Under the pieces are notes generated by a model, which saw only the letters and a list, made by a program, of their open reading frames with translations, did not search any database and had not been told where the DNA came from. Shown here piece after piece: positions 13,407-45,876 of a stretch of DNA of 45,876 nt. The stretch is from Methanobacteriota archaeon. GTDB taxonomy: Archaea; Thermoplasmatota; Poseidoniia; Poseidoniales; Thalassarchaeaceae. Location: contig PBZE01000047.1 in assembly GCA_002730095.1 (NCBI GenBank), positions 1 through 45,876 on the forward strand, written 5' to 3'. The position numbers and the translations under genes were made by a program. Every line of letters begins with the position of its first letter. Within the stretch, counting starts at the first letter, position 1.

Positions 13407-16196
13407 ATGGTAGCGGAGGACTTCGGAGAAATCAGCTTCTCAGGAAAACTCAGGCCATCACAGCTTGCTTCTTCTGAAGTTATCAAGAAAGAGCTGGATC
13501 GGAACTCTAAGGAATTACTCATCGTAGCCCCTCCTGGATCCGGAAAGACTGTTTTGGGATTATATGTCTGGTCAGATTTAGTCAGACTCCCTACATTGGT
13601 TTTGAGCCCCAACTCCGCCATACAGGCCCAATGGGTCGAGAGAGCAAAGGAATTATTCTATCTGGATGGCAGGGAAGGTGATATAGGAACAGACCCAAAG
13701 AAGCCAGGCATCCTTACCTCACTTACATACCAGTCAGTCACACTCCCAAAGAGAGGTGGAGATAGCCTAGATGAATCGGCATTGGAATTGTGGATTAGTA
13801 GTCTGATGACACCGAACCAGGAAGATGGCTCCGTAGAGGCGGAAGATGAGGAGAGTGCTCAGGCATGGATAGGAGATTTGGAGGAGAAGAATCCGGAATA
13901 CTACTCTGATAGAATGGGACATTTCAGAAAGAAGGTTAGAGACTCTCTCTCTGAACATGGAAACGCTCTATGGGTCCTCCATGAGTCCTCACAGGACAAT
14001 CTGAAGAGACTCGCCGAGGTGGGAGTAGGGCTAATCATTCTCGATGAGTGCCATCACCTAATGGACCATTGGGGGAGGGTACTAGTTGAGATTAAGGAAT
14101 TTCTCGGAAATCCAATAATATTGGGGCTTACTGCCACACCTCCTGACAAAGCTAGCGAATCTTCTTCAAGTAGATATCTGGAACTATTTGGGGAGGTTGA
14201 CTATGAAGTCCCAGTTCCAGCACTTGTTAGAGATGCCAATCTCGCTCCATACCAGGACTTGGCTTACTTCGTTCGCCCCTCATCTGATGAGCTGAAATAC
14301 ATATCCAATGTTGACAAGGACTTCAACGAACTCCTCGAAGAATTAAGCAGGGGGCCTCAAGATAGAGAAGGAAGAACACCCAGACTTGATGTTTGGCTGG
14401 CAAAGGTCCTAGATGGACTAATCTTACCGGGAGGCAAAGCAAAGGATTGGAATGCATTCTATAGAAGGGATCCAAGACTAGCTGATGCGTCTAGAGCATA
14501 TCTCACAACCAGAAATCTGAGCTTGCCTCCTAATGTCCCCCCTCCTCCTCCTAATCTTGCATCAGCGGGAAGGAGTATGGACATTCTAATTACCGTACTA
14601 GATCGATACATCAGGAATGGCCTCATGAGGTCAAAAAGCTTGGATGATCATTCCCTAGCAGAGGAAGCGAAAAGAAAACTGAGGATGACAGGTGTGCAAA
14701 TTACAGGTAGCGGTCCTAGGCTATGCGCGTCCCCCGTTGGCAGGGTGATGGCATATGCCTCCGCAAAGTACGACGCACTCAGAAATATCCTGACCGCAGA
14801 GATGCAGGCACTTGGCCCCGATATCAGAGCTGTGATTGTTACCGACTTCGAGAAGACTTCTGCAACCGCATTAGTAGAGGGAGTTCTGGATGATGATGCT
14901 GGCGGAGCAGTGGCAGCTTTCCGAGCTATCCTCGGTACAGAGGATACCGATCGTCTAGATCCAGTTTTAATGACTGGTACTACAGTGCTCGTTGATGATG
15001 ATTTATTGGAGAGAATATTTCCTAGATTCGAAAAGTGGTCCTTTGAGAGAAATCTGGACATAAAATTCGACTATATTGAGCGAGGTGAGTACTTTGAGAT
15101 TCGTGGGCGAGGTAAGGATTGGCTACCAAGATATTACACAATGATGATTACGGAACTATTCCAAGAAGGGGTGACAAAATGCATTGTTGGCACAAGGGGC
15201 CTTCTTGGAGAAGGATGGGATGCTAGTAGAATAAATGTGCTTATCGACCTTACCACGGTAACAACAAGTATGAGTATCAATCAACTTAGAGGCAGGTCTT
15301 TCAGGCTCGACAAACATTGGCCTGATAAAGTAGCTAACAACTGGGATATCATATGTCTGGCTGATGAATTCACCAAGGGATTTGATGACTATCTAAGATT
15401 CAAGCGCAAGCACAAGCAACTGTATGGAGTATGTGATGATGGAGCTATCGAAAAGGGAGTTGGACACGTCCACGCGGCATTCACCGAGGCTGAGCCCGAA
15501 GGTGTGTCCGAAACAATGCAGATATTCAATGAAGAGATGTTGATGAGAGCAATGAACAGACCTAGGACCCGAGATCTTTGGGGTATCGGACAACCTTTCA
15601 ATGCAGTTCCTAAAGAGGCAATAGAGATCAAAGGTGCATTCGAGGGAGGTTTTCCAATTGCACGTAGAATCGGACTAGCTGGGTGGACCGACGAATCTCT
15701 TGTTCAGGCCATATCAAATGTTGTAGCGACTTCATTACAGGCCCTCGGGCACATAGGATATGATGCAAAGGTCGGAGGAGGGAATAGAGGAGGGGGTTGG
15801 TTAAGGGCGTACCTAGAAGACGCGACTGAGGAGGAATCGGAGATTTTTGCGGAAGCCATGCAGGAGGTACTCGGGCCTCTTGAAAATCCTAGATATGTAA
15901 TTCCAAGGGAAGTCAGAGTCATAAGCGAAACATGGTTGAGTGAGATGCTCCCTGAAGTCCTAGCCAAGTTCTTCCGCAAGAAGAGTAACACACTGGCGAT
16001 GTATCACGCAGTTCCTAAGATATTATGCAGAAACATCGAGGATGCCAAGGTGTTTGAGAAACAGTGGAACTTCAAGGTTAGTCCAGGGGAGGTAGTCTAT
16101 GGCCACAGCAGGAGCGGAAAGGAAACTGTTAGTACCATCAAGAGGGCAGGCCTGTCACCAAAAACCTCATTCCATCGAAAAAGCGTATTTTTGTGA
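13407..16196 (+). CDS. SF2 DEAD/DEAH-box (ResIII-like) helicase
   Basis: APPGSGKT, DECHH, LTATP, LLGEGWDA, QLRGRSFR. Confidence 0.88.
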   Translation: MVAEDFGEISFSGKLRPSQLASSEVIKKELDRNSKELLIVAPPGSGKTVLGLYVWSDLVRLPTLVLSPNSAIQAQWVERAKELFYLDGREGDIGTDPKKPGILTSLTYQSVTLPKRGGDSLDESALELWISSLMTPNQEDGSVEAEDEESAQAWIGDLEEKNPEYYSDRMGHFRKKVRDSLSEHGNALWVLHESSQDNLKRLAEVGVGLIILDECHHLMDHWGRVLVEIKEFLGNPIILGLTATPPDKASESSSSRYLELFGEVDYEVPVPALVRDANLAPYQDLAYFVRPSSDELKYISNVDKDFNELLEELSRGPQDREGRTPRLDVWLAKVLDGLILPGGKAKDWNAFYRRDPRLADASRAYLTTRNLSLPPNVPPPPPNLASAGRSMDILITVLDRYIRNGLMRSKSLDDHSLAEEAKRKLRMTGVQITGSGPRLCASPVGRVMAYASAKYDALRNILTAEMQALGPDIRAVIVTDFEKTSATALVEGVLDDDAGGAVAAFRAILGTEDTDRLDPVLMTGTTVLVDDDLLERIFPRFEKWSFERNLDIKFDYIERGEYFEIRGRGKDWLPRYYTMMITELFQEGVTKCIVGTRGLLGEGWDASRINVLIDLTTVTTSMSINQLRGRSFRLDKHWPDKVANNWDIICLADEFTKGFDDYLRFKRKHKQLYGVCDDGAIEKGVGHVHAAFTEAEPEGVSETMQIFNEEMLMRAMNRPRTRDLWGIGQPFNAVPKEAIEIKGAFEGGFPIARRIGLAGWTDESLVQAISNVVATSLQALGHIGYDAKVGGGNRGGGWLRAYLEDATEEESEIFAEAMQEVLGPLENPRYVIPREVRVISETWLSEMLPEVLAKFFRKKSNTLAMYHAVPKILCRNIEDAKVFEKQWNFKVSPGEVVYGHSRSGKETVSTIKRAGLSPKTSFHRKSVFL

Positions 16197-16952
16197 TTAT
16201 TTTGTGCAATTATTGCAATCTATCCCAGATCCCGCATGATCTGAGCAGAACCTGTTTCGGCATGTGTAGCATCTGAAGTCGAAGGCTGTGACCTCAGCAG
16301 AGCAACCGGGGTGGCCGCAATATTCCACATTAGGAGTGGATGAAGAGCCAACATGGGTCCCAGCCTTGAAGGCGTCCGCCTTGGCTCTCGACTCCTTGTC
16401 CGAGTCATATCCCTCCTCCCACCAGTCATCACCAACCTCCTCACTAGAATCTCTGGAGTTGTTTTCCTCTTGTAGTCCAAGAATCTTGATTACATAAGGG
16501 CTGGATAAAAAACGATTCTCAATACCGTATTGTTCTAATCTACGTTGACCATCCTCTCTGGATCTAATTTCCCCCCCTTTAACCTGTAGGAAATCTATCA
16601 GCCTATCATACGAGCGGATGTATCCGGGTGAGAGACTCCGATTCAGATCCAATGGTCTGCGAATCGGATATCCGCGATAATCAGTGGGAGCAGATGTCCT
16701 CCCAATCACGGGGGTCTTTCCTTGCTGGAAGCCGACGAACAGAAGCATCACGACTATTGGACCAAATGCGGAGAGACACGCATAGAATGCAACCCCTTCC
16801 CCGATTCCACTGGATATGAAAAGAGCTAGGAGAATTGCGGGGATAAAAAAGACAAGTTTGTTGTCGGTTCTTTCATCAACATATTTTATTCCCCCCCAAA
16901 CCCCGCTAAAAAATAAAATAATGAGCATTAATGCAATTTCTAGGCCTGACAA
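16197..16952 (-). CDS. Membrane protein with C-terminal AN1-like zinc finger
   Basis: About 3 N-terminal TM helices; C-x4-C-x10-C-x2-C-x4-C-x2-H plus CxxC at the C-terminus; GAGGG upstream of the TTG. Confidence 0.7.
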   Translation of the reverse strand: MSGLEIALMLIILFFSGVWGGIKYVDERTDNKLVFFIPAILLALFISSGIGEGVAFYACLSAFGPIVVMLLFVGFQQGKTPVIGRTSAPTDYRGYPIRRPLDLNRSLSPGYIRSYDRLIDFLQVKGGEIRSREDGQRRLEQYGIENRFLSSPYVIKILGLQEENNSRDSSEEVGDDWWEEGYDSDKESRAKADAFKAGTHVGSSSTPNVEYCGHPGCSAEVTAFDFRCYTCRNRFCSDHAGSGIDCNNCTK

Positions 16953-16964
16953 AGCTATCCCTCA

Positions 16965-17068
16965 AAGGAGTAGCCAAGGCGCTGTCCCGGCGCCTTGGCC
17001 GGTGAAGTACCTGAGATTGATGCGTAGCATCTGCAGTCACTGCCCTATCGGGCTCCTTCTCTGGGACA
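16965..17068 (+). ncRNA. Candidate structured non-coding RNA (multibranch with possible pseudoknot), family unrecognised
   Basis: Closing stem AAGGAG/CTCCTT; perfect 10-bp hairpin 16973-16999; three further hairpins; loop TGTCCCG complementary to TGGGACA (17062-17068). G-U pairs favour the + strand. Confidence 0.5.
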
Positions 17069-17142
17069 TTACGCTCTAGGGGCTCTGAAACATAAACTAA
17101 ATCCCTTATTCCCCTTCCCCTCGCTTAATTATGTATAAATCA

Positions 17143-18441
17143 CTAGTTTCTGACCACTATTCTCATAGACGCTTCCACACTACCTGAAACTTCCCCTTCT
17201 CCCTCCCTAATTGGGAGCCCTAGACGAGAACAGAGCTCCAGATGGGGAGCGGACCATGGGTGTGCACACCTCTCACTTGCCCCATAACCAAGTACAGTCA
17301 ACGGCTCAACTTCTCCAACCCATTCGCCCTGTGCCATACGGCCGGTGATTCTTACCCATGCATGTTCGAATTTCCGAATATCATGCTCAAATTGATTCAA
17401 ACCTGCTCCCGATAACCGACTGAGGAGGAAATCACGGGGTATCGCACGAGGCACAATAGCAAGGGCCCTGACTCCATCACTGAGAAAAGCCACAGGCCCA
17501 ATATCCATCGAATCGAAGATCCCATTTGCCTTCTCCACCGCCTTTTTCATTTCACCCCATTTTTGAGGCAGCCAAACAACAATCGCTGAGCGATCTTTAG
17601 TTCCAGAAACATGACTGCTAACCTCTATACTGGTGTATTCAGAACCCTGATCTGAGTGCTTTCCAACATCTTTAGTACTGAATTTTGGCCATTTTATTGT
17701 TGGCATCGACAGAGGAGGATTCCTCGGAATCTCAATTGCAGAGGAGTGTCTAGGAATCAAGTCAATCCATTCATCCACTGGAAGATCTAACCAATCTTCC
17801 TGCATTATGGTACATTGCCATCCAGTTGCCCCATGAAGTGTTCCTGGGACTCTGATAATCCGACGAGTATCTGCGGTTACTACGGGATCAACAGGAAATC
17901 CAGCCTCAATCACCCTCTCCAATAATTCCTTCCGACTCCTACGAACCTCCTGCTCTCTTCTTACTGGATCCGGCTCTGAAAAGAGACTACGATCAGGGTC
18001 TCTTGCGATAATGTGGAATCCCTTACTGCCCGAAAAGCAGATGTGCTTAATATCCAATTCAGTGTTCTCTAGAAGCCAATCTCTGACTCCTTGAGTCGCT
18101 GATCTGGCCTGCTCTAGCTTCGTCTTGCAAAAGGGACGGATATCAATATCGAAGACAACGAGATGATCAAGGAGTATGGGATAAGGCCTTTTTGTATCCT
18201 TCAGTCTAGGCAGATTTACTGGATTAATCCATGAAGATGTTGAGACATAAACGTCTGTTGGCATGCATCCACTGAAATCTTGTATCAGCTTCTTTCCTGT
18301 AGATATCCTACGTCGCGAAGTTATCCACGGTCCTTTCAGAGATTTCCATCTAAATTGGTGCTGAGATGGTTTTGAAAGCCAAGTGAGGTCTATCTCCCCC
18401 ATCTCTGAGTAGTGTCTTTCGAGATTTTCCTCAGTCCACAT
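17143..18441 (-). CDS. Archaeo-eukaryotic primase (PriS-like) with C-terminal extension
   Basis: DVYVS, VVFDID (motif I), FSGSKGFH (motif II), VDPVVTADTRRIIRVPGTLH (motif III). Start moved to ATG 18441 to avoid overlap with the divergent gene. Confidence 0.85.
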   Translation of the reverse strand: MWTEENLERHYSEMGEIDLTWLSKPSQHQFRWKSLKGPWITSRRRISTGKKLIQDFSGCMPTDVYVSTSSWINPVNLPRLKDTKRPYPILLDHLVVFDIDIRPFCKTKLEQARSATQGVRDWLLENTELDIKHICFSGSKGFHIIARDPDRSLFSEPDPVRREQEVRRSRKELLERVIEAGFPVDPVVTADTRRIIRVPGTLHGATGWQCTIMQEDWLDLPVDEWIDLIPRHSSAIEIPRNPPLSMPTIKWPKFSTKDVGKHSDQGSEYTSIEVSSHVSGTKDRSAIVVWLPQKWGEMKKAVEKANGIFDSMDIGPVAFLSDGVRALAIVPRAIPRDFLLSRLSGAGLNQFEHDIRKFEHAWVRITGRMAQGEWVGEVEPLTVLGYGASERCAHPWSAPHLELCSRLGLPIREGEGEVSGSVEASMRIVVRN

Positions 18442-18519
18442 GACAGTCCCCCTATGCCCAAGAAGGGACTCCAGACTTTGTTTTATTCCAAATATGTCGT
18501 CATTTGACTCGGTGGGTTC

Positions 18520-19593
18520 ATGGGGCTCACTACTCTCGGAGTATCGTTGAGCGAAGAAAAAGGAGCCAAGGGACGAAGAGGCCGTCGTAGGGATAGACGC
18601 CGTTCTGAAGGTATTGACGCCTCTAAACAAAGAGTCCAAGACATGGATTCAGAGTCGATAAAGAGGGCCTTGGGGAGATTCACCGCAGATCCACTTCCCA
18701 TGGGTTTCCCTCTCGAAATAGATCCTCCTCCAAGAAGAGTAGATGTGAAATGGGAGCTAAACGCAGTTTCAAGGGAGGTCCAAAATAGGACCGGAGAGAT
18801 AGTTAGCAAGAGAGGAGAATTCGGATTCCTGCCACAAGAAAGAGTAGATGAAATCGCCTCGCAAATCGAAGAACTGCCAATCTCTCTTGAGCAAGCACTC
18901 TCTCTAAGGAACGCTTTGAATCAGGAGAAGAGCGTTTACTCTCATCATAAGCTAATGCGTAGATCTAACGAATTGAATCGTAGGTATAATTCAGGAGAGG
19001 ATGTCATTTCCCTCTCAAAGAGATTTGACGCCCCTCCAGTGAACACATTCAGGGCAATCCTAACAGGAAGAGGATGGTCAAAGAACAGAATCAAGGAGTC
19101 GCTCAAGCAACCTTCGAAGATGAAGACGAGGGATAGAGAGCAATTCGAACTAGCAGAGTCAATGGATAGGGTGAGCTCAGTGAACCAGGATGAGACCCAC
19201 AAGGCATCGATGGTTTTTGAGGATGTCTTGTACCTCTTCTTTGACTCCATAGGAGTCAGATATAGAACTCAGGAGCAACTAATGGCCGAGCAAAAGAAAT
19301 CGGAGGGGAGGGCCGTAATTACTCCGGACTTACTTATGATCGACGATGTCAGAATAAATGGGGTCCCATGTGCTTGGATAGATGCAAAGCATTTCTTTGG
19401 GGCCGATCTGAAGTTTCCCAGGAAGAAAACTCAGAAGCAAGTTGATAGATACGTCGCGGAATACGGGCATGGCGCCATTGTTTACAGGCATGGTTTCTGT
19501 TCAGGGTTGAAGATAAACGGTGCTGAGCAACTAGATGCTAGTCCACTTGACCTTACCCTTCTAGACAAATTTCACGAGGAGTCCAACTCATAG
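18520..19593 (+). CDS. CDIN1/C15orf41 (TPD)-like PD-(D/E)XK nuclease
   Basis: FE..L...(F), TQEQL, TPDLL, WIDAKHFFG, Q..RY...YG.GAIVY..GF follow my recollection of the TPD-family pattern; N-terminal HTH-like segment (SGEDVISLSKRFDAPP). Confidence 0.75.
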   Translation: MGLTTLGVSLSEEKGAKGRRGRRRDRRRSEGIDASKQRVQDMDSESIKRALGRFTADPLPMGFPLEIDPPPRRVDVKWELNAVSREVQNRTGEIVSKRGEFGFLPQERVDEIASQIEELPISLEQALSLRNALNQEKSVYSHHKLMRRSNELNRRYNSGEDVISLSKRFDAPPVNTFRAILTGRGWSKNRIKESLKQPSKMKTRDREQFELAESMDRVSSVNQDETHKASMVFEDVLYLFFDSIGVRYRTQEQLMAEQKKSEGRAVITPDLLMIDDVRINGVPCAWIDAKHFFGADLKFPRKKTQKQVDRYVAEYGHGAIVYRHGFCSGLKINGAEQLDASPLDLTLLDKFHEESNS

Positions 19594-23140: not shown

Positions 23141-24445
23141 TCAATCCTCTCTACAGACTACAAACATGCTGTAATCACCGGTTTCTCGGGAAAGCTCGAT
23201 ATCGACCATGAACGAACGTGAGCCCTCGACCTCCCTCATCGCTTTGTGAAGCCTTCTCTGGAGTTTCGGATGCATCTCCGGATCTAGAGAACATCTCAAA
23301 GTAACACTGCCTATCTCTAGCCTAGCAAGAGATGAAGCGATCTGTGCAATTGTATGCTCTTCAGGTGGCGAAAGCCTGTGTTGTACTACCTGTCCCGTTG
23401 AGACCACGAAACCTCTGACATCGTCGTCTTCGCTAATTGGCTCAGTATGTATTAGCAGCGGCCTCCTCCCTTCTGTTCTAATCCATGAGTATCCAGAACC
23501 ATCAGGTATAGCCTTCGAAATCCAATCATCTTGCAAACCACTCTCTAGTACTACCGGGTCAACTATAGTGATCCATGACTCGAATGGAGGGGGCTCGAGT
23601 AGTCTTATCCCGATTACTTCATTTTCATCTCCTTCGATTTCGGACATGATATTCTTGGTGCCCATTCTAATACATCTTCTAGGTTGACTGGAAGATAGCG
23701 ATCCTATCCATAACGATAGCCTATCTACTCGTCCACCCCCACGACTCATCCATTCCCAGGTCCTTGAATACCCGGGAAACACCCTTTCGACTATTTCATC
23801 AACCATCGATCTTTGTCCAGAATCAAGTCTGGGGGACAAGTCAAGGAGTATACAGGGGCCTCGTGGACCGAGCTCCAAGTATTGCTTCCAAGAAGATAAG
23901 ACGGATTCTATGGAAGGCTCCATCTCATCTATGTGGTGCTTCTGAGCATCCCGGGGTCTTGCAGGATCAAGGTGCAACATAGCTACAGGGGGGTGAGCCC
24001 TAGTTCCTGATTCTCGAAGGCTCGACCAGAACTCATTCATCACTCCCTCTGAATCAGTGCTATCCCCAATAATCACTCTGTCCATGGATCTCTGGATGTC
24101 ATCAGAATCAGCAGCCGCAAACATATTTGCCGCACACAAGACAGCCACGTTACCGTCTATTTCCACTCCTAGGGAAGGTCTTTTTAGAACATTTGAATAT
24201 GCGATTAGCTGTAATCCAGAACCCACTGCTGCATCCAATATTATGCCCGGCCCCAATGATGCTGGATCTATCTGATTCGCACGAGCTAGAGCTACTCCCC
24301 AAGGTGTAGAAAGCCTGCGCATTTGCTCAGTCAGGTGGAACTCAGGCTCACCCTTTCTGGCCGACTTTGCACCTACTCTATTTTCTGCCTCATTGGCAAC
24401 CGACTTGGATGGTTTTACAGTTGCATGTGAATTCTCCTCAGACAT
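23141..24445 (-). CDS. Putative SAM-dependent methyltransferase with C-terminal THUMP-like region
   Basis: STP..VA..RA, LDAAVGSG, GVEID, LDPARP, LSP, D.DP-like motif in the C-terminal half. Confidence 0.65.
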   Translation of the reverse strand: MSEENSHATVKPSKSVANEAENRVGAKSARKGEPEFHLTEQMRRLSTPWGVALARANQIDPASLGPGIILDAAVGSGLQLIAYSNVLKRPSLGVEIDGNVAVLCAANMFAAADSDDIQRSMDRVIIGDSTDSEGVMNEFWSSLRESGTRAHPPVAMLHLDPARPRDAQKHHIDEMEPSIESVLSSWKQYLELGPRGPCILLDLSPRLDSGQRSMVDEIVERVFPGYSRTWEWMSRGGGRVDRLSLWIGSLSSSQPRRCIRMGTKNIMSEIEGDENEVIGIRLLEPPPFESWITIVDPVVLESGLQDDWISKAIPDGSGYSWIRTEGRRPLLIHTEPISEDDDVRGFVVSTGQVVQHRLSPPEEHTIAQIASSLARLEIGSVTLRCSLDPEMHPKLQRRLHKAMREVEGSRSFMVDIELSRETGDYSMFVVCRED

Positions 24446-24460
24446 TCCTCGCCCTCCAAT

Positions 24461-25450
24461 CTACCCCGAAATCGGGGCCCTATCTAGATTAACCTCGAAC
24501 CTGAGCCAAACATCTTGAAGCTCATGACCATCATTATTCCCATACGCAATTGGGGGAGGAAGGAGAGTAATGTGGGAGGTCCCCGTCTCGACGCCGGGTA
24601 TTAGTCCCCTATCATCGTCGATATCCAAGCCAATTGTAGACCATCCAAAGCCATCAATCGACCACCAAGGATCTCCAGCATTCTCTGTCCATGTACCGCT
24701 GTCTAGCTCTTCTCCAGTATCCGCATTCCAAACAGTATACTCTACTTCGACCCTGTCTCCCTCCTCAATGTGCAATGATCGGGCTTCAATTCCTTGGAAT
24801 ATGCTCACATCGAGCCTAACCTCTGCCGACATAAGTGACACATGTGAAGCGATAATTGATATTTCTCCCTCAGTAATATCCTCAGTCAACTCAATTTCCA
24901 AGATTACCGCATCACCTCCAGACATCTCATTGATTAGGTACTGTGTATCTCCCGAAGCCGAAAATAAGACATCTGGGCCCCCAATCTCCAGGAGCAGATC
25001 AAGAGTCTGATTTCCCCTATTGTAGATCACAACCGAGGCCCTGTCTCCTTGTCCTTGGTGCTCCCAGTCACATCGAAGCTCTCCGGGATACAGGAAAACC
25101 TCATCCTGGGAGGACAGATTATCAGGCCAAGTCCAATCCCCATCTCTTGAGTCACAGGTATCGAAAAGTAAGTCAACCTCCCATGCCCATCTGCCATCCA
25201 TTTCAATCATCGATTCATCTACGGACTCGAAGGACTCGTCTAACTTTTCCAAGAATCCAACTGCCGAGAAACCTATCCAAATAGACGACAACAGAATTAC
25301 TAATACTGTAGAAATAGAGAGCAATATTGCAGCTCTGGGAACAGCCATCTCATTGATGCCAAGAGGCACAGGAGGATGCTCAACTTCATCGGGTGTATCC
25401 GATATCCAAGACCGCGTCACATTCCTTTTGCCGGGCCCAACTGCCATCAA
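24461..25450 (-). CDS. Membrane-anchored acidic protein with C-terminal FKBP-type PPIase-like domain
   Basis: One N-terminal TM helix; EGDRVEVEYT....GEELDS, I.GF....GL, LPP.IAYG, LRFEV.L. Confidence 0.6.
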   Translation of the reverse strand: MMAVGPGKRNVTRSWISDTPDEVEHPPVPLGINEMAVPRAAILLSISTVLVILLSSIWIGFSAVGFLEKLDESFESVDESMIEMDGRWAWEVDLLFDTCDSRDGDWTWPDNLSSQDEVFLYPGELRCDWEHQGQGDRASVVIYNRGNQTLDLLLEIGGPDVLFSASGDTQYLINEMSGGDAVILEIELTEDITEGEISIIASHVSLMSAEVRLDVSIFQGIEARSLHIEEGDRVEVEYTVWNADTGEELDSGTWTENAGDPWWSIDGFGWSTIGLDIDDDRGLIPGVETGTSHITLLPPPIAYGNNDGHELQDVWLRFEVNLDRAPISG

Positions 25451-25492
25451 GGTTGGCCCACTTTGACCTCAATCATCAGGATTAGTCCACAA

Positions 25493-28400
25493 TCAGCTCT
25501 TGGCCAGACTATCTTCATTACTTAGTCCCAACCAAGAAATTATTCCAAGCTCGAGTGCTATAATTGACAGACCGATCAAGAATACATGCGGCTGGAAAAG
25601 TATGCCGCCGTAGAACACTGCTGAGGTTATTATTGCAACAAGTAAGTCAAACAGCCCCAGAGCCCTCAGAGACTTTCTCAGTTGTAGAATTCCGATAACC
25701 CATACTGTAGTGGACAACAAAATAAGGAAAATAGGAATCATAAACGCCAAACCAGAAGCAATAGAACCAACTATTAGGAGGAGGTGTGCGTTGGTTGAGA
25801 GCATTCCAGACCATCTATCCCCCTTAGTCAATAGAGTACTTGCCAACATTACTAGCAGGATTATTCCCATCAAGATGTATATCTCACCAGTAATTCCAGA
25901 AATGCTATCAGCCCAGCTTCCAATTGAGATCATACTCATCGCCATACCCAATATGGCTATCCCAACAGCATCTGGCAGCTTCCTCCTCCACCCATGATTT
26001 ATTGAGTATAGAATGGCCACGATTGCAGCTATTCCCGTAGATAGAAGAATCACAGTGAGACTCCTCATTCCTACAGCAATCCCATGCTCGTGCTCTCTGC
26101 CCTTATTCTCCCGCAGCTCTCCGATCCAATAGCTAACAAGCACCGCCAAAAGGAGACATAGCTCAAGCCCCAGAAGAGGAATCTCCCATTCCAGAGAATC
26201 GCCTGAGAACGGGTCGACCCTAAGCGGCCAAGGCATCGACTCGTACAATATTACTCCCAGAAATCTGTCTGCCAACAATGAGTAGATGAACCAATCTACA
26301 GCAATAGGAATCCTGTCAAGCATGTTGTCCTGTTGATATAGAGAAATCAGACACAGCTCCATTATCAGTATTGTAAGAACTCCCATACTGGAGAGGTCCA
26401 TATTACTGGCCCCTGGTCCCAAAAGAGATGAAATATGCATAGCAACTAGTCCCGAAATACCAATTGCAATGGGCATTTCCATACCGAGAAAGTGAGGCAA
26501 ATCCAACTCTAATTGCTTAGTTCTGAACCTCGCTATGGCAATCAGAACTGTGACAAAAACCCCAACTCCAAGCAGAAGTACAGGATTCGGTCCTGTTGTC
26601 AAACCCAAAACAATTCCAGAAATGAATACGAGTATCATAACTGCAATGACTATGATTGGTTTGTGAGAGATGTCAGATGTGTAAAGCTCCTCGACGTCAT
26701 CCGTCTCACTCTTTTCCCGACTCTTTCTTCTTGTGGCCATCATCTCAGCCTCTCTCGCATCATATGTTGCCAAATCAGCTCCTTCATTCCCATCATTTGC
26801 CTTCTTCAATGCCATAGCTCTTCTTTCGCTCATTTTGGTAACAGTTTTCAGCTCTCGCCGCAACTCACCCTTGGCAACAAGCCAGATCGTAGCTACCATG
26901 AACATCAGGATAGATATTGCAAGATATGTGGAATTGCCTTGAACATAAGCTACGGCTATGCAAATAGACATGAGCCAAAGCGATGAAAGTGCGGGTTTAA
27001 GCAACTCATCAGTGGAGCCAGATTTGGGAAGATATATTCCAAGTATTGCTGCAGTGGAACATATAGCAACAATAGGCGAATCTAATACTGGTAGGGATGA
27101 AAAACCCTCCAAATATGTTGAAATCTCTCTATCGGGGACCATCAGAAGCAGAGCAATCCCCATCGAGCCCATTGAAACAGTGAACATCTCCTTGTCCTGC
27201 CTGCCGATTAGGAGATTTGTGACCAATATTATGCATATTAGAATCGAGATATACTCTCCCATTCCATGCCTCCACTGTATTATCATGGCAGTGACAATGA
27301 TCGTCCCAATCATCATATCCAAACTACCCATCCTGACTCCTCTGAAATGGGCCAATGTGTGCATCCCCCAAAGGGCCCCAACCACCATCAGAAGAGTTAG
27401 GGACGTGAATGCTCCAAATTGAGCTAAAAACATGATTGAAACCATGGGAAGCCATAATCCTAAGCTCCACAGTTGCAAGGCTCCTGAGTCTCTTATAGAT
27501 GCAGAAATCTCTGAAATACCCAAAAATTTCGAAGCTAGATTCACATCTACCTTCCCCATTCTCTCATTGACCAAAATCATCATCACGGAACAGATTAGGA
27601 GATAGATTGCCAATGGACCGGGATCCATCTCGATAATGCTTCCAGGGTCTTCCAGATCGTTTGATATGAGGAGGGTTCTAACGGCCTCTTGAATAAATTG
27701 CTCCGCAATTATCCATGACCATGGAAGGAGTACAGTAACTCCTGCCAGGGAGGGGGACTTCCTCTTAATGGCCAGAGTTCCGCTACCAATATGAAGAACA
27801 GACAACATCCCCAGAAGTAAGGCCCCCCCGTCCCCTCCTGAATCAACTGAATCGGCTGGCACTAGGATTACTAGCAAAGTTAGTACTGCCACAGTACCCA
27901 TCCACAGTACTCTGTCAGTCACGCTATTTTGATCTCTGAGAATTATCGTTCCGACTGACACGGACCCCACTATCGTGAATATTGAATATTCAGAGACATT
28001 GTACAAGTCCGAAAAAGACTGCCCAAAGAGCAAGAAAAACAGAAGAATTAGCGCCACAGCCGAAAGTGGATAAAACACTCTCCCGACAGAAACCCCCCTC
28101 ACAACCAGATAAGAACCAGAAAAAGCCCCAGTCAATACAGTAACCAATCCCAATGCATATCCCAGATCTCCGCTGTTTGCTGCTACAGTCAGTAATGCGC
28201 CCATCAAACCCATTGAGACTGAGACTCCCCAGAGACCAGGACTACCAAGTCCCAGTACGTTCAATCCCTTTGAAAACCAGTTTTCTTCTTTCGCGAAGCG
28301 TGTAGCCATGGATGCATTCAGTGCCGTAATTCCTAACAGTAGAACGAATAGGAGCAATGGTCTATCTAATGCCATCACTCGCAGCTCTCCTATCTCGAAT

Positions 28401-29200
28401 CCTTTGGTTGTAGCATGCATCCCTATCCAAAGATTCGAGGATGCTATGCCAAGAGCAGCCAGATTCCCAGATTTTCTGTGAACCGCTAGTCCGTGCACTA
28501 GGATAGTGGAGATCAGAATCATCAACGCTACTCCCTCTTGGCCGTATAGGGAGCCCGCTGTGGACCCAATAGCGAGAAGCACCAATGTTGATTGAGCGGC
28601 AATAGCATCATGCTCATATCTGTAGGAGGCAGCGATATTGAGGCATACTACGACAATCAAAATAGCGCCTAATCCCTCAACTCCAACAATTCCCCACCTC
28701 TGTAATTCTAGAGATAAACCGTAAAGTACCTTCATGGAGATGATGACCCATGTTATTCCCAGAACTCTCAACCTTCGGTCACTCGACCATCTCTCTCCGA
28801 AGAAGAAACCAACTACTGCGAGAAAAACCAATGAGAAAGATGCAAGCATTGGTTCGAAAACGAAACCAATTTGAAATCCTATGGCACTGTAAACTAAAAT
28901 CATGGCTCCCATAAGAATCCAGTTAATGCCCCTCTCACCATCGACAGATATCTCAGTCACTATGTCTGATTCTGGGGCCGATTTTACAGTCCCATCCCTC
29001 TCGATAGCCCCCTTGCTCTTCTTGTCTGAGAATGGATCGAAGAGCTCTCCAATGGCCTCATCGACTTCTTCGTTGACTTCACTCCCTACATCGTCCCCGT
29101 CGAATAGGGCAGTATCGACAAGGTCCCCGATATCCAACTTGTCACTGATCCTAAATGCCCGTTCTCGGATGATTTCGTCTTCCGAGGCGTCATCCACCAT
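25493..29200 (-). CDS. Very large polytopic membrane protein of unknown function
   Basis: 1235-aa ORF that is almost wholly hydrophobic helices, with an acidic N-terminus and one charged loop. Confidence 0.75.
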   Translation of the reverse strand: MVDDASEDEIIRERAFRISDKLDIGDLVDTALFDGDDVGSEVNEEVDEAIGELFDPFSDKKSKGAIERDGTVKSAPESDIVTEISVDGERGINWILMGAMILVYSAIGFQIGFVFEPMLASFSLVFLAVVGFFFGERWSSDRRLRVLGITWVIISMKVLYGLSLELQRWGIVGVEGLGAILIVVVCLNIAASYRYEHDAIAAQSTLVLLAIGSTAGSLYGQEGVALMILISTILVHGLAVHRKSGNLAALGIASSNLWIGMHATTKGFEIGELRVMALDRPLLLFVLLLGITALNASMATRFAKEENWFSKGLNVLGLGSPGLWGVSVSMGLMGALLTVAANSGDLGYALGLVTVLTGAFSGSYLVVRGVSVGRVFYPLSAVALILLFFLLFGQSFSDLYNVSEYSIFTIVGSVSVGTIILRDQNSVTDRVLWMGTVAVLTLLVILVPADSVDSGGDGGALLLGMLSVLHIGSGTLAIKRKSPSLAGVTVLLPWSWIIAEQFIQEAVRTLLISNDLEDPGSIIEMDPGPLAIYLLICSVMMILVNERMGKVDVNLASKFLGISEISASIRDSGALQLWSLGLWLPMVSIMFLAQFGAFTSLTLLMVVGALWGMHTLAHFRGVRMGSLDMMIGTIIVTAMIIQWRHGMGEYISILICIILVTNLLIGRQDKEMFTVSMGSMGIALLLMVPDREISTYLEGFSSLPVLDSPIVAICSTAAILGIYLPKSGSTDELLKPALSSLWLMSICIAVAYVQGNSTYLAISILMFMVATIWLVAKGELRRELKTVTKMSERRAMALKKANDGNEGADLATYDAREAEMMATRRKSREKSETDDVEELYTSDISHKPIIVIAVMILVFISGIVLGLTTGPNPVLLLGVGVFVTVLIAIARFRTKQLELDLPHFLGMEMPIAIGISGLVAMHISSLLGPGASNMDLSSMGVLTILIMELCLISLYQQDNMLDRIPIAVDWFIYSLLADRFLGVILYESMPWPLRVDPFSGDSLEWEIPLLGLELCLLLAVLVSYWIGELRENKGREHEHGIAVGMRSLTVILLSTGIAAIVAILYSINHGWRRKLPDAVGIAILGMAMSMISIGSWADSISGITGEIYILMGIILLVMLASTLLTKGDRWSGMLSTNAHLLLIVGSIASGLAFMIPIFLILLSTTVWVIGILQLRKSLRALGLFDLLVAIITSAVFYGGILFQPHVFLIGLSIIALELGIISWLGLSNEDSLAKS

Positions 29201-31399: not shown

Positions 31400-31474
31400 G
31401 CAATTAGTAATAATAATTTTGAATTATGTAATTATTAGCTTTAATTAAATATGTAATAGCTACCCGAAAGGGTA
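31400..31474. promoter_or_regulatory. AT-rich divergent promoter with candidate operator
   Basis: Inverted repeat TAATAATT-N11-AATTATTA (31411-31437); TATGTAAT direct repeat (31425, 31450); TACCC-GAAA-GGGTA hairpin (31461-31474). Confidence 0.55.
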
Positions 31475-33717
31475 TGAAGAGTGTAGCATACAGGTCAATA
31501 TTGCTAAGCGTACTAATGATTACATCAAGCCTTGCAGGCTGTCTAGGGGACACTGAAGAAGATAGTACTGATGATACCAATCAAATCGAGGATCCTATCA
31601 CTGTCTTCGGCTCAGTGATGGTTTCCACATATCACGTTGGTGAGCTGGTAAAGGCAGTAGCCGGAGAACATGTAGAGATCGACTACATGAGCCAGGATAA
31701 TATCCCTGTGCACGATTACGACCCATCAGCTTCTGATCTAATCAGACTACAACAGGCCGATGTCTTCTTTTATCACGGGTTGAACCTAGAACCTTGGGTT
31801 GACTCAGCTTTGGAGTCACTGGGTTCCGATGCACCCCTCTCTTTCATGACGCACAAAATGGCATCCGGAGAAACAACTCTAGATTACCAGTCTCTCTTAG
31901 TTGCTGACCTTTGTGAGCTGTTGAACCAAGGACCATTCGAAGCCACCACTCTGGGATCGATGCCGGAAGACCACGACGACCACGACGACGACCACGACGA
32001 TGACCACGACGATGACCACGACGACGAAGGCGGTATGCAGACTGCAGCGGGCCATGGCGACCACTCAGATGACGATGACCACGATGACCACGATGACCAC
32101 GATGACCATGAAGGACATGGTCACGCTATGGCCGAGAAGGTAATCCAGAATCCAGAGGCATGCCCGGCTGATACGACCATCCAGGTATTCCACATGGAAG
32201 AAGGTGAGCACGTACTAGAGTTCGAGTCAGAGCATGGGGAGGAGTTCAACATGGCGGTTCTAAAGATGCTAGGAGGGCACGCTCATCACCATCATGACCA
32301 TGGCGACGACCACGATGATGATCACTCGGACGACGAGGATGACCATGGTGAGGGATTGTGTCACAACACCGACACCCATGAGAACTACGAGTCGACGGAG
32401 GAAGACTGCGAGGCCGCAGGCCATATGTGGATGGGCCATGAAGATCATGATCTGCCAGAAATCCACGCGGACCGAGTTGCCCACACCCTCTCTTTCCCAA
32501 TTCACATAGCTGGGGACTGGGTAGACGAGTGGGGAGGTGAACACTCCATCGACTCAGACTCATGGAATGACAACACCATCACACACTATGATAATCATGA
32601 GATGTGGGCCGTCGCTCAGAACAGTGAGGATGATCAGTATTACCCAGGGCTCTGGTCGAAGTACGACTGGACATGGGAATTAGAAGAGCTGTACTACTGC
32701 CAGTCCACATTCGGCGCTGATACAGAGGCAGACGCATTGGCTGCCGAGAGCGCTAACGCTAGTGATTTAGCGGCCGGATGTGGTGGATTCCCGTGGAGCC
32801 TAATGGAAGAAGTCGGCCATGACGACCATGACGATCACGGAGACGACCACTCAGACGACGAGGGCGACCACGATGACGACCATGACGATCACGGAGACGA
32901 CCACTCAGACCACGAGGATGACCATGACGAACACCATGAAATTGGAGCAGTAATCATCCATATTGAGGAAGAAGGTGACTATGGATTTGCCATGCCCAGC
33001 GACATTGAACTCTATGTCGTAATGGGAGAAGGAGGGCATGACGACCATGGAGACCATGACGATCACGGAGACGACCACTCAGACGACGAGGGCGACCACG
33101 ATGACGACCACTCTGACGAGGATGGAGATCACGATGACCATGACGATGAGATTGAGGCTGACCAGGATGAGGAGTCATACGACTACGATCCACACAGCTG
33201 GCTCGATCCAGTTTCGTTCAACGAGCAACTCAAATTGGTTCAGGAAAAACTGACCATGGCCTTCCCAGATGGGGCTGTTGCATTCGCAGAAAACGCTGAT
33301 GCATACTCGATCGAGTTAACTGAGCTTCATGATCGCTTCGAGCAGGTACTGGGGAATCAAGGAACCTGTGTCACAGCAGGCTTGCAAAGGGTGATTGTGG
33401 CCAATCACAACGCTTACTCGTACATCTCGGTGAGGTACAATCTAGACATACTCACCATACATGGCTTAGATCCAGAAGGAGAGCCTTCACCAGCCGAAGT
33501 AGCTGAGGTCATTGAGCACATCAAGGAAGAGGGAATTACAACCCTCTTCGTTGAGGAATACACTGACCAGACAGCCGTTCAGAGCATCGTTGAGGAGACT
33601 GGCGTGGAGGTCCAGGTCCTATACACGATGGAGATGCGACCCAGTGATTCCTCGGATGACTACTTGTCCATGATGAACAAGAACATCGAAAACATATCTA
33701 GCGGAATTGGCTGCTAG
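31474..33717 (+). CDS. znuA: Metal (Zn/Mn cluster A-I) ABC transporter substrate-binding lipoprotein with giant His/Asp-rich insert
   Basis: LAGC lipobox, PVHDYDPS, FYHGLNLEPW, DPHSWLDP, HNAYSY, EPSPAE, DYLSMM..N. Confidence 0.85.
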   Translation: MKSVAYRSILLSVLMITSSLAGCLGDTEEDSTDDTNQIEDPITVFGSVMVSTYHVGELVKAVAGEHVEIDYMSQDNIPVHDYDPSASDLIRLQQADVFFYHGLNLEPWVDSALESLGSDAPLSFMTHKMASGETTLDYQSLLVADLCELLNQGPFEATTLGSMPEDHDDHDDDHDDDHDDDHDDEGGMQTAAGHGDHSDDDDHDDHDDHDDHEGHGHAMAEKVIQNPEACPADTTIQVFHMEEGEHVLEFESEHGEEFNMAVLKMLGGHAHHHHDHGDDHDDDHSDDEDDHGEGLCHNTDTHENYESTEEDCEAAGHMWMGHEDHDLPEIHADRVAHTLSFPIHIAGDWVDEWGGEHSIDSDSWNDNTITHYDNHEMWAVAQNSEDDQYYPGLWSKYDWTWELEELYYCQSTFGADTEADALAAESANASDLAAGCGGFPWSLMEEVGHDDHDDHGDDHSDDEGDHDDDHDDHGDDHSDHEDDHDEHHEIGAVIIHIEEEGDYGFAMPSDIELYVVMGEGGHDDHGDHDDHGDDHSDDEGDHDDDHSDEDGDHDDHDDEIEADQDEESYDYDPHSWLDPVSFNEQLKLVQEKLTMAFPDGAVAFAENADAYSIELTELHDRFEQVLGNQGTCVTAGLQRVIVANHNAYSYISVRYNLDILTIHGLDPEGEPSPAEVAEVIEHIKEEGITTLFVEEYTDQTAVQSIVEETGVEVQVLYTMEMRPSDSSDDYLSMMNKNIENISSGIGC
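31969..33150 (+). repeat. His/Asp-encoding low-complexity tracts, including a perfect 59-nt direct repeat (32824-32882 = 33052-33110) and a partial tandem copy (32875-32910)
   Basis: Direct sequence comparison; GAC/CAC/GAT codon arrays in several blocks. Confidence 0.85.
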
Positions 33718-33754
33718 ATCTGAACCATGTTTAACAAGAAGGAGGGGGGAATAG

Positions 33755-33856
33755 ATGTATTTGTCCGATGGACTACCCATAATTTTCGTGGGCTCTATTT
33801 TCCTCCTTCTTACATGTTGGTTAGGATACGAATACGTAAGGGCTAAGTATGCTTGA
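33755..33856 (+). CDS. Putative 33-aa single-pass membrane protein (MYLSDGLPIIFVGSIFLLLTCWLGYEYVRAKYA)
   Basis: Translated by hand; strong purine SD-like tract AAGGAGGGGGGA upstream; one hydrophobic helix with a basic tail; lies between znuA and znuC. Confidence 0.55.
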   Translation: MYLSDGLPIIFVGSIFLLLTCWLGYEYVRAKYA

Positions 33857-33942
33857 ACCAACAAATCTCCTTTTGTCATCCCTCTGTCTTCAGAGTTGGA
33901 ACGATTCTACATGCATTCGACAGGAGCTTAGTTCGTAGGGTG

Positions 33943-45791: not shown

Positions 45792-45876
45792 GCAGGTGTA
45801 CCCGAGTGGTCAAAGGGGGAGGGCTCAAGATCCTCTGCGTAGTGCTTCGCAGGTTCGAATCCTGCCGCCTGCACCA
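45792..45876 (+). tRNA. tRNA-Leu (anticodon CAA), CCA encoded
   Basis: Acceptor GCAGGTG/CGCCTGC, D-loop AGTGGT, anticodon arm GAGGG-CTCAAGA-TCCTC, long variable arm, GTTCGAATC T-loop, ACCA end. Confidence 0.96.

Follow-up and report, generated by a model that had tools for sequence, protein, structure and literature searches.

We found that an archaeal genome of the order Poseidoniales encodes a structured RNA of ~96–100 nt on the minus strand, made up of three hairpins, a kink-turn and a pseudoknot, that is absent from RNA catalogues. It lies in a contig of a Thalassarchaeaceae genome (GCA_002730095.1, PBZE01000047.1) whose 45,876 nt are referred to here as the window; all coordinates of RNA features below are on the minus strand. 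We know of no cultured member of these archaea, and to our knowledge their RNA biology has been little described.

Covariation defines three hairpins and a pseudoknot

Folded as a single sequence, the minus strand reaches −44.3 kcal/mol (z −2.11; 4 of 200 shuffles as good) and the plus strand −47.9 kcal/mol (z −2.51; 3 of 200 as good). This advantage over shuffled sequence is modest, and it is the comparative data that decide. We aligned 51 homologues (50 distinct rows); because they were fitted to the hairpins by the search model, hairpin pair counts are biased toward the hairpins, and the genomes are relatives, so that all counts overstate independence. With these biases, 96.2% of cells were paired across the three supported hairpins and the pseudoknot, a value reached by 0 of 500 shuffles, in which 83.3% were paired; sliding the partners against each other left 27–43% paired. 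Both sides had changed in 17 of the 26 pairs of these helices.

The pseudoknot had been left out of the search model. Its 5′ strand, UGUCCC (17063–17068), pairs with 16983–16988 in the loop of the last hairpin, and the 51 homologues contain 18 duplex types, including UGUCUC/GAGACA, GACCUC/GAGGUC, UGCCCC/GGGGCG, UGUUCCUA/UGGGAACA and UGUCUCCAA/UUGGAGACG, with changes on both sides in five of the six counted pairs. Cognate partners form a mean of 6.7 bp, and three more divergent copies supply a further compensated duplex, GGCCUCA/UGAGGCC. Hairpin H1 (GCCC GAUA GGGC; 17042–17053) has 93.9% of its cells paired; its second pair is C-G in 35 homologues and U-A in 15, and it is capped by a GNRA-like or UUCG loop. 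Hairpin H2 (GAUGC UAC GCAUC; 17019–17031) is a variable stem with 98.7% of cells paired and both-side changes in all five pairs. Hairpin H3 (16972–17000) has 11 bp and a 7-nt loop, CGGGACA, that carries the 3′ strand of the pseudoknot; 98.4% of its cells are paired and both sides have changed in 6 of the 11 pairs. Three of its five loop-adjacent pairs are invariant and the other two differ in 1 of 50 rows. Between H2 and H3 runs a joining strand (17001–17018), rich in C and A and poor in G, with a conserved A at −8 (46 of 51) and at −3 (47 of 51); no partner for it was found.

Two further interactions were considered and rejected. A GAAG/CUUC helix between the linker and the joining strand occurs in some genera only and needs A·C pairs on the true strand, and a triple helix between the C-rich joining strand and the purine strand of the pseudoknot does not track across lineages.

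The original prediction had described, from the letters of this one stretch, a structured RNA with a loop-tail pseudoknot that matched no known class, and covariation together with the Rfam results given below bears this out. Its coordinates are also correct: AAGGAG lies at 16965–16970, CTCCTT at 17053–17058 and TGGGACA at 17062–17068, and the perfect 10-bp hairpin is present at 16973–16982/16990–16999 around the loop TGTCCCG (16983–16989), as are the GCCC/GGGC and ATGC/GCAT stems. Of the four hairpins it enclosed in a junction, the long one and those with ATGC and GCCC cores have comparative support, whereas the homologues do not preserve GGTG/TACC or the outer GATTG/CAGTC pairs, the latter of which clash with the kink-turn. 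The proposed closing stem AAGGAG/CTCCTT is confined to the organism's own genus; in other genera the region of its 5′ partner cannot be aligned.

Strand of the RNA

Wobble pairs, alifold energies, a minus-strand A+T peak at a fixed distance upstream of the RNA and a kink-turn for which only the minus-strand sequence qualifies together place the RNA on that strand, which is also the strand of both flanking genes. The G-U pairs that had been taken to favour the plus strand are reversed among the homologues: across the supported helices, G-U occupies 61 cells on the minus strand, which read A-C on the plus strand, against 11 the other way. On a structure-blind alignment, alifold gave −28.67 for the minus strand and −21.48 for the plus strand. 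In a 7-sequence alignment, H3 has zero broken pairs on the minus strand, whereas C·A and A·C mismatches appear on the plus strand. The same four lines of evidence contradict a free-standing plus-strand RNA antisense to both genes.

The invariant motifs form a canonical kink-turn

The invariant GGAG and RUGAC motifs are the two strands of a canonical kink-turn in 51 of 51 homologues. Its non-bulged strand (17054–17057) consists of A17057 (4n), G17056 (3n), G17055 (2n) and A17054 (1n), and its bulged strand (17035–17041) of AGU at L1–L3 (17041–17039) followed by G17038 (1b), A17037 (2b), C17036 (3b) and U17035 (4b). Both 2n1n and 1b2b are GA in 51/51, and the bulge has 3 nt with U at L3 in 51/51, reading GAU in 11. 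The 3n:3b pair is G-C in 48 of 51 and −1n:−1b is G-C in 50 of 51, while 4n:4b covaries (AU 28, UA 12, CG 5, GC 2; unpaired in 4, paired in 47/51). The bulge, the tandem G:A pairs, a Watson–Crick C helix (H1) and an NC helix beyond the G:A pairs are thus all present, matching the definition and rules of kink-turns as far as the available part of a study of archaeal examples sets them out (PMC6298567). According to the same portion of that study, a Watson–Crick 3b:3n pair prevents ion-induced folding, and all kink-turns tested there fold with L7Ae (PMC6298567). Because its 3b:3n pair is Watson–Crick, the kink-turn described here is predicted to need a protein to fold. The genome holds two L7Ae-family genes, on other contigs, and on this sequence evidence the kink-turn is most likely bound by L7Ae, the archaeal kink-turn binder.

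Promoter geometry and position before an AN1-like gene

A TATA-like box (TTTAT on the minus strand, 17092–17096) lies 23 nt upstream of UGUCCC. In 50 homologues, the A+T fraction is 0.86–1.0 at −29 to −25 from G17067 and 0.3–0.5 around it, and the spacer between box and start is variable in sequence and fixed in length. By archaeal promoter geometry, transcription is predicted to begin at about G17067, a G after a pyrimidine; this base is G in 49 of the 50 homologues, and −1 is T or C in all of them.

Past its 3′ end, the RNA is followed by a Shine-Dalgarno-like GAGGGA (16958–16963) and a TTG start codon (16950–16952) that open a gene (16197–16952, minus strand). The product of this gene is a membrane protein whose C-terminus carries an AN1-like zinc finger (Pfam zf-AN1 at E 1.2e-4, short of the cut-off). 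An AN1-like gene follows the RNA in 47 of 51 loci, and the first start codon in its reading frame falls 9–23 nt past H3 in 37 of 44 homologues. Seven Cys are invariant among 32 homologues of the protein, for which NCBIfam and the ESM Atlas supply no name. Its AlphaFold model (mean pLDDT 70.6, pTM 0.32) had no PDB match at E ≤ 0.001, with solved zf-AN1 domains appearing only at E > 2. No conserved terminator was found between RNA and gene, a T run of at least 4 following H3 in only 9 of 51 loci. In two genomes, L040 and L042, a T run and a stretch of ~140 nt lie between the RNA and the AN1-like gene, an arrangement more in keeping with an independent RNA than with a leader.

One alternative raised in the original prediction, mutually exclusive folds switching in the 5′ leader of the AN1 gene, came close to the anatomy seen as regards position, whereas the mutually exclusive folds are not conserved. 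No alternative pairing able to hide or release the ribosome site was found to be conserved: the sole candidate, AAGGAG against CUCCUU, is genus-specific. Local hairpins that mask the site are frequent and not general. Coding through the element was likewise rejected: three genomes of the genus share a frame that is open across it and in register with the gene, and elsewhere one-base insertions or deletions and stops intervene. A 19-nt repeat shared by 17020–17038 and the AN1 finger codons at 16262–16280 (17/19 identical, z 6.0 in its own genome) is attributed to chance: among 44 homologues, z has a median of 0.3, and ≤2 of 200 shuffles were as good in only 2 of the 44.

The RNA belongs to an accessory cassette

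The RNA, the AN1-like gene, a primase-like paralogue and an SF2 helicase form an accessory cassette of ~5.3 kb that occurs in this order only. The primase-like gene (AEP; 17143–18639, minus strand) matches Pfam DNA_primase_S at E 6.7e-4, below the cut-off, and NCBIfam PriS in part; it lies upstream of the RNA in 49 of 51 loci, and the canonical PriS is encoded on another contig. The helicase gene (ResIII/DEAD; 13407–16196, plus strand; Pfam ResIII 1.2e-15) is convergent with the AN1-like gene at the far end of the cassette and is present in 44 of 51 loci. PADLOC had no match for the primase-like or the AN1-like protein, and PADLOC and PHROGs gave only generic helicase and primase matches for the flanking proteins. 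No convincing direct or inverted repeats were found around the cassette.

A second search model found the RNA in 66 of the 151 Poseidoniales genomes searched, and none of 45 genomes from two other families of the same class gave a match. There is one copy per genome, with two equal matches in one case (G050), and its gene context is the same in 51 of 51 loci. Of the 151 genomes, 62 carry the RNA together with the primase-like gene, 79 carry neither, 4 only the RNA and 6 only the protein; an unfiltered search showed that three of these six hold a divergent RNA, and most exceptions are contig ends or divergent copies. In three of three RNA-negative genomes examined, the same site is empty of all four cassette parts.

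A 91-nt core in an RNA library

In one metatranscriptome run (X1), a single 121-nt contig with a word depth of 359 matched the RNA with 0 mismatches. Positions 1–24 of the record fall on 16973–16996 and positions 25–115 on 16973–17063, a layout that corresponds to a 91-nt cycle with a 30-nt overlap; this core is known from one contig in one run of one study. The junction joins C16973 to C17063 with a one-base ambiguity. In this self-closing contig the covarying 5′ strand of the pseudoknot is short of its first four bases, a form that a simple leader does not explain. When repeated, the 91-mer has stops in all six frames, and its longest open run is 62 aa. No contig matched in runs X2, X5 and X8, and none in X1 on the rest of 16400–17500, results that are uninformative on absence or relative expression.

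The PF09414 RNA ligase was found in none of 61 genomes of the order (59 at least 90% complete) and not in the present genome, and RtcB is present. Because no PF09414 ligase was found, a true circle would need 5′-OH and cyclic-phosphate ends. The contig junction may also stem from library preparation.

Known RNA families

Rfam 15 returned a single match over the whole window, a tRNA elsewhere, and no family at its gathering threshold on the element. At E ≤ 10, six chance-level matches appeared on 16800–17250, the best at 17.2 bits against a gathering score of 48, and 14 homologous loci gave none. ARAGORN reported only a distant tRNA-Leu, and a literature search on Poseidoniales and pseudoknots found no paper. 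An H/ACA-like guide had been suggested from a terminal ACA, an idea that fails here: on the true strand the ACA lies within the paired loop and is neither single-stranded nor conserved, loops in other lineages end in ACG, UCC or GCGC, and there is no pocket architecture. Box C/D sRNAs carry the boxes C (RUGAUGA) and D (CUGA) together with C′ and D′, have two kink-turn or kink-loop motifs, and show U:U at 3b:3n. The alignment here has one kink-turn, C:G at 3b:3n and no second box pair or guide regions, so this class was rejected.

What the RNA may do

We give about an even chance to a model in which the RNA is a pseudoknotted leader or ribonucleoprotein domain that depends on L7Ae, controls the stability or the translation of the AN1-like mRNA and also yields a stable 91-nt core; its regulatory effect and the meaning of the 91-nt species are what we infer from the features above. 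The TATA box would set the start at about G17067, and the first six bases, UGUCCC, would pair with the H3 loop, closing the domain around H2 and the kink-turn formed by GGA, H1 and ARU-GA-C. Binding of L7Ae to the kink-turn would bend the RNA and let the 5′ end dock into the H3 loop. Transcription, meeting no conserved terminator, would then proceed through the Shine-Dalgarno site to the AN1-like start codon, so that the bound leader could set how stable that mRNA is or how well it is translated, and part of the RNA would accumulate as the 91-nt core.

It is possible, though we hold it rather doubtful, that the RNA acts on its own as a cofactor, primer or template for the primase-like polymerase, the helicase or both. 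Its place before the AN1-like gene would then merely reflect operon layout, and the 91-nt species would be a circle or a product of repeated copying. The near one-to-one co-occurrence with the primase-like gene points this way, as do the presence or absence of the cassette as a unit, the depth of the self-closing contig, and the T run and spacer in L040 and L042. The near-invariant pairs next to the H3 loop suggest sequence-specific recognition, and there is a precedent in DRT2, as far as the accessible parts of the two reports describe it (PMC12039810, 10.1101/2024.05.08.593200). Against this stand the neighbouring enzyme, which is of AEP type and not a reverse transcriptase, the empty PADLOC result, and the stops in all six frames of the repeated 91-mer, unlike the endless gene described for DRT2 in those parts. 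The contig junction has one base of microhomology and could have been made in the library, and most genomes leave no room for a separate AN1-like promoter. A more specific version, that the RNA is the noncoding partner of a new type of cassette and that its 91-nt core is excised and circularised or copied head-to-tail, we consider unlikely.

A riboswitch, in which a metabolite or metal bound by conserved nucleotides of the junction would regulate the AN1-like gene, is improbable. In its favour, the domain is compact, highly conserved and pseudoknot-closed and sits immediately before a ribosome site, and kink-turns do occur in several bacterial riboswitch aptamers. However, the kink-turn already accounts for all invariant GGA and UGA bases, and a single gene context in every locus is unlike most riboswitch classes. 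The conserved domain is there; a conserved alternative pairing or expression platform was not found, and the downstream gene offers no clue to a ligand.

Quite improbable, too, is a self-cleaving or enzyme-processed RNA cut after about its fourth base and at the foot of H3, with the 91-nt piece joined by RtcB. The C16973–C17063 junction, the presence of RtcB and the absence of PF09414 from the 61 genomes would fit. However, no Rfam ribozyme matches, one ribozyme cut cannot make both ends, and the proposal depends on one contig of one run in one study. Archaeal introns are cut at a bulge-helix-bulge motif, two 3-nt bulges with a 4-bp helix between them, and no such motif could be drawn here: the sole helix linking 17050–17072 and 16958–16976 is 6–7 bp and genus-specific.

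Two last readings are scarcely credible. A free-standing plus-strand RNA closed by AAGGAG/CTCCTT, as first proposed, has the slightly better single-sequence fold, but the strand evidence contradicts it and its closing stem is confined to one genus. A short upstream reading frame, with GGAG as ribosome site and the invariant RUG 10–12 nt after it as start codon (ATG in 40 and GTG in 11 of 51), would span anywhere between 4 and 52 codons or read through into the gene. Neither a stop nor a peptide is conserved, one-base insertions or deletions set close relatives apart, and the kink-turn explains both motifs.

Implications

The RNA would be a new family whose comparative signature is unusually clean: a textbook kink-turn combined with a pseudoknot that uses the first transcribed bases. 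It goes one-to-one with an uncharacterised cassette of four parts, which some genomes have and their close relatives lack. Several questions become testable now: the use of L7Ae-type proteins outside ribosomes and guide RNAs, the role of a primase-like/helicase/zinc-finger module, and the making of small circular or repeat RNAs in archaea by a route without an Rnl-type ligase. If the RNA is the partner of a new cassette type, it would represent an archaeal counterpart of bacterial polymerase-plus-ncRNA systems that does not involve a reverse transcriptase. If it is merely a stabilising leader, it would be a modest addition to the structured leaders of archaea.

Comparison with known systems

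In the SAM-I and c-di-GMP-II aptamers, the bend of a kink-turn lets a distant loop-strand pseudoknot form ~100 nt upstream of a gene. The RNA described here likewise combines a kink-turn with a loop-strand pseudoknot in a domain of ~100 nt upstream of a gene, but it has no Rfam match and its helices follow another order. Its single gene context and its occurrence in an archaeon suggest folding of the turn by a protein and not by a ligand.

Defence systems that pair a polymerase with a pseudoknotted noncoding RNA exist, as the accessible parts of the DRT2 reports relate (PMC12039810, 10.1101/2024.05.08.593200). As in DRT2, a pseudoknotted RNA here adjoins a polymerase gene in a patchy cassette, and a head-to-tail repeat appears in a nucleic-acid library. 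In contrast to DRT2 as presented there, the enzyme is AEP primase-like (a weak match) and not a reverse transcriptase, PADLOC has no match, the repeat has stops in every frame and forms no endless gene, and no link to viruses was seen.

The circular, L7Ae-bound small RNAs of archaea are box C/D sRNAs, for which Rnl has been reported to act in circularisation, according to the portion of the source at hand (PMC9014305). They too are small kink-turn RNAs with head-to-tail junctions in RNA data, whereas the present RNA lacks C, D, C′ and D′ boxes, has one kink-turn and occurs in an order with PF09414 in 0 of 61 genomes. Another comparison is with Tan1, an abundant structured noncoding RNA in metatranscriptomes of marine group II archaea that is 229 nt long in the available part of its description (PMC5069720), against ~96 nt here with a start codon 9–23 nt behind. 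Identity with Tan1 is unlikely on this comparison, which is of descriptions and not of sequences.

L7Ae-binding kink-turn stem-loops have been described in the 5′ leaders of archaeal l7ae mRNAs, as reported in the accessible portions of two studies (PMC6298567, PMC5539422). The RNA shares with those leaders the tandem G:A/A:G pairs, the GAU bulge (in 11 of 51 homologues) and a 3b:3n pair that is expected to block folding unless the protein is present (PMC6298567). It differs from them in −1b:−1n, which is C:G here, as in most natural kink-turns, and in none of the six l7ae leaders compared in that portion (PMC6298567). Its kink-turn (17035–17057) lies ~75–80 nt from the Shine-Dalgarno site (16958–16963), whereas the two are adjacent in the l7ae leaders as that source depicts them (PMC6298567), and it is built into a domain of three hairpins closed by a pseudoknot. 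Finally, the gene served in those accounts is l7ae itself, whereas here it is an AN1-like gene in an accessory cassette.

Conservation and structure of the RNA

The 190-bp gap at 16953-17142 separates two minus-strand genes, an upstream primase-like gene (17143-18639, 498 aa) and a downstream AN1-like gene (16197-16952, 251 aa). The product of the latter ends in an AN1-like zinc finger, whose match to Pfam (E 1.2e-4) falls below the cut-off, and its nearest Atlas clusters belong to Thermoplasmatota. The original prediction placed an unrecognised multibranch RNA on the plus strand at 16965-17068, and all of its sequence strings were found where it put them. The absence of a known family also stood: no Rfam 15 family matched the element at gathering scores, and at E ≤ 10 the search gave only six chance-level hits, the best of which scored 17.2 bits where the gathering score is 48. 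ARAGORN found only a tRNA-Leu (CAA) across the window, at its extreme end (45792-45876). Our literature searches returned no description of the RNA ('Poseidoniales' with 'pseudoknot' gave 0 papers) and surfaced a single candidate, Tan1, which the available text of PMC5069720 describes as a 229-nt RNA and which we compared by description rather than by sequence. The single-sequence fold is only modestly unusual (z -2.51 on the plus strand, -2.11 on the minus strand).

BLASTN with the gap as query matched 7 of 61 related genomes, its own included, with a conserved core at ~16973-17073 that extends into other genera. A covariance model of three minus-strand hairpins (R1) yielded one match per genome, in 31 of the 151 family genomes and in 46 of 151 from the order. 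We collected 51 sequences: 30 loci from the 31 R1-matched genomes of the family, the weakest match (E 0.002) yielding no locus; one further genome from BLASTN; and 20 of the 28 genomes of family f3 that R1 matched in the order. A second model built from these 51 sequences (R2) detected the RNA in 66 of the 151 genomes sampled from the order (18/74, 1/2 and 46/74 in families f1, f2 and f3) and in 22 of the 24 genomes of one genus, and in 0 of 45 genomes from two other families of the same class. One genome, G050, carries two equal-scoring copies on two contigs (C11:1913-2006 and C94:3981-4074), each adjoining a primase-like gene with an identical E-value; either the assembly duplicated the locus or the genome truly carries it twice.

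Pairing was counted in alignment A6 (51 sequences, 50 distinct rows) over hairpins H1 (17042-17053), H2 (17019-17031) and H3 (16972-17000) and six pseudoknot pairs (17063-17068 with 16983-16988). In total, 96.2% of cells were paired compared with 83.3% in a shuffled control, the observed value being reached by 0 of 500 shuffles, and slid controls paired 27-43%. Both sides had changed in 17 of 26 pairs: 5/5 in H2, 6/11 in H3, 1/4 in H1 and 5/6 in the pseudoknot. Of the five loop-adjacent pairs of H3, three are invariant and two deviate in 1 of 50 rows. Because the pseudoknot was absent from the search model, its support is independent of model fit. After scripted re-registering of the loop, 18 distinct duplex types were found; cognate partners pair over a mean of 6.7 bp, reaching 9 bp in one family, and three additional, more divergent copies contain another compensated duplex. 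Thus, the original prediction was correct at its core: the loop of a hairpin pairs with a distant tail.

Other predicted pairings fared less well. The GGTG/TACC and outer GATTG/CAGTC pairs are not kept in other genomes. The proposed closing stem, AAGGAG/CTCCTT, is confined to the window's genus, which rules it out as a general mechanism, and two relatives require a G-U pair on the minus strand to form it. It also shares bases with a strand of the kink-turn (k-turn) described below and with the first H1 pair, which makes the stem and the k-turn/H1 fold mutually exclusive. It could be a genus-specific alternative fold, since CUCCUU is also able to pair with the ribosome site of the gene.

Strand and promoter

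A plus-strand RNA, antisense to the flanking genes, is contradicted by several lines of evidence. Among cells of the supported helices, 61 are G-U when read on the minus strand and A-C when read on the plus strand, compared with 11 of the reverse. H3 pairs without a break on the minus strand in the first seven sequences, whereas its plus-strand reading contains C.A/A.C mismatches. Alifold energies from a structure-blind MAFFT alignment of the 50 distinct cores were -28.67 (minus) and -21.48 (plus), and only the minus strand allows the k-turn motif to be written. On that strand, A+T content is 0.86-1.0 at positions -29 to -25 relative to G17067 (50 sequences), followed by a spacer of variable sequence and fixed length and a pyrimidine-G step at -1/+1. 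Archaeal TATA boxes and initiators show such geometry. Together, the wobble counts, H3 pairing, alifold energies and promoter geometry place the RNA on the strand of the flanking genes, with transcription most likely starting at G17067, base 2 of the pseudoknot strand. Conservation in family f1 extends upstream of the TATA box (17097-17112 and homologues): most genera have CCGGCG(T/C)TGAG ahead of TTTAT, a longer shared block that may be a BRE or a regulator site.

A kink-turn at the base of H1

GGAG before H1 was at one point taken for a ribosome site and RUGAC after it for a start codon, a reading since superseded. Judged from the alignment, the two form a standard k-turn with H1 as its C helix. 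The 2n1n GA, the 1b2b GA and the 3-nt bulge with U at L3 are each present in 51 of 51 sequences, C:G at -1b:-1n in 50 and C:G at 3b:3n in 48, and the 4b:4n pair covaries (AU 28, UA 12, CG 5, GC 2, unpaired 4). These positions fit the k-turn definition and folding rules given in PMC6298567, according to which C:G is the usual natural form at -1b:-1n, a Watson-Crick 3b:3n pair blocks folding in metal ions alone and addition of L7Ae folds every k-turn tested. Two L7Ae-family genes are present in the window's own genome. In f3, the pseudoknot strand directly adjoins the two-pair NC helix without a linker, so that the k-turn would kink H1 away from a continuous NC helix/pseudoknot stack.

An accessory cassette

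Of the 51 oriented loci, 49 have the primase-like gene upstream of the RNA, 47 have the AN1-like gene on its downstream side and 44 have an SF2 helicase in convergent orientation; missing partners reflect contig ends and one variant. At L047 (2033-2500), from one f3 genome, the RNA precedes the gene for a 121-aa protein that is Cys-rich near its N-terminus instead of bearing the C-terminal AN1-like finger, and the 4.1 kb retrieved there contains no helicase match. The primase-like gene is a paralogue: another contig encodes a canonical PriS that scores above the Pfam cut-off. Five RNA-negative genomes have canonical PriS only. Across the 151-genome sample searched with R2, the RNA and the primase-like protein were both present in 62 genomes and both absent from 79, with the RNA alone in 4 (three contig ends, one weak hit) and the protein alone in 6. 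A filter-free search found a divergent RNA in 3 of those 6, the other three giving fragmentary or contig-end matches. In three RNA-negative genomes, the same site reads S13-S4-S11-RpoD-orf-orf-LeuRS and holds none of the four parts, placing the empty site between LeuRS and a small ORF adjoining the RpoD/S11/S4/S13 cluster. Given this co-occurrence and joint absence, helicase, AN1-like gene, RNA and primase-like gene (13407-18639, ~5.3 kb) are one accessory unit. PADLOC and PHROGs returned only generic helicase or primase hits on the cassette, and no flanking repeats of the unit were evident.

The window itself is ordinary chromosome. An imperfect, C/T-rich 22-nt direct repeat (77%; 17109-17130 and 17191-17212) straddles the stop of the primase-like gene. 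Elsewhere lie three successive minus-strand ORFs (23141-29200; 434, 329 and 1235 aa) with no Pfam match at E ≤ 1e-5 and a putative metal uptake cluster (31474-35702) in which ABC ATPase and permease genes come after a ZnuA-like binding protein (747 aa) that carries a long extension at its N-terminus.

Leader or independent RNA

On comparative evidence, we consider it established that the RNA is real and lies on the minus strand, that it combines three hairpins and a k-turn with a pseudoknot between its 5′ end and a loop, that it has its own predicted promoter and a constant position ahead of the AN1-like gene, and that it belongs to a four-part accessory cassette confined to one order. The reading we favor, to which we give an even chance, is that the RNA is a leader of the AN1-like gene. 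L7Ae would bind and fold the k-turn, enabling the 5′ end to dock into the H3 loop, and the folded leader would set mRNA stability or translation. A conserved A directly 3′ of H3 (48/51) precedes a Shine-Dalgarno-like stretch, and an AN1-like reading frame is recognisable in 44 homologues, in 37 of which its first start codon beyond H3 comes after 9-23 nt. A T run of at least four follows H3 in only 9 of 51 sequences. In most genomes another TATA box would not fit, so transcription of the AN1-like gene must either run through the RNA or come from further upstream.

A more tentative reading is that the RNA stands alone as a ribonucleoprotein part of the cassette. Its near one-to-one co-occurrence with the primase-like gene would suit such an RNA; the scarcity of T runs and the closeness of the start codon suit a leader. 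Two f3 loci, L040 (2104-2260) and L042 (2099-2260), have a T5-T7 run directly after the RNA; ~45 nt past it lies a conserved GGAGG...ATG, the start of a frame of 17-18 codons, and the AN1-like gene begins only at +143/+147, with ~140 nt intervening. In these two loci the RNA may be independent, in a variant arrangement. The small remaining probability is shared among a ligand riboswitch, a processing element and minor rivals.

Part of the window was present in 1 of 10 listed RNA runs, labelled marine. A single 121-nt contig from this one run and study mapped within 16400-17500 (word depth 359, no mismatch), although assembled contigs carry neither strand nor end information and an RNA library may contain DNA. 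Record positions 1-24 map to 16973-16996 and 25-115 to 16973-17063, both in minus orientation, a layout that results from writing out a 91-nt cycle with 30 bases of overlap, the assembler presumably using 31-letter words. The junction, C16973-C17063, is ambiguous by one base. Because they covary, the four bases at the 5′ end of the transcript must be transcribed, yet the 91-nt species, if real, lacks them; it terminates at the last G-C pair of H3. It may be a circular RNA or result from copying over and over, or it may consist of chimeras in which an abundant linear RNA was joined head to tail. RtcB is present, no PF09414 ligase turned up among 61 genomes of the order, no BHB motif could be drawn, and the repeated 91-mer has stops in every frame.

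Among known systems, the closest are the L7Ae-binding k-turn leaders of l7ae mRNAs, which have in common with the present RNA the k-turn and the leader position, but differ in distance to the ribosome site, in architecture and in the gene that follows. Polymerase-associated pseudoknotted ncRNAs, such as that of DRT2, appear to be less similar.
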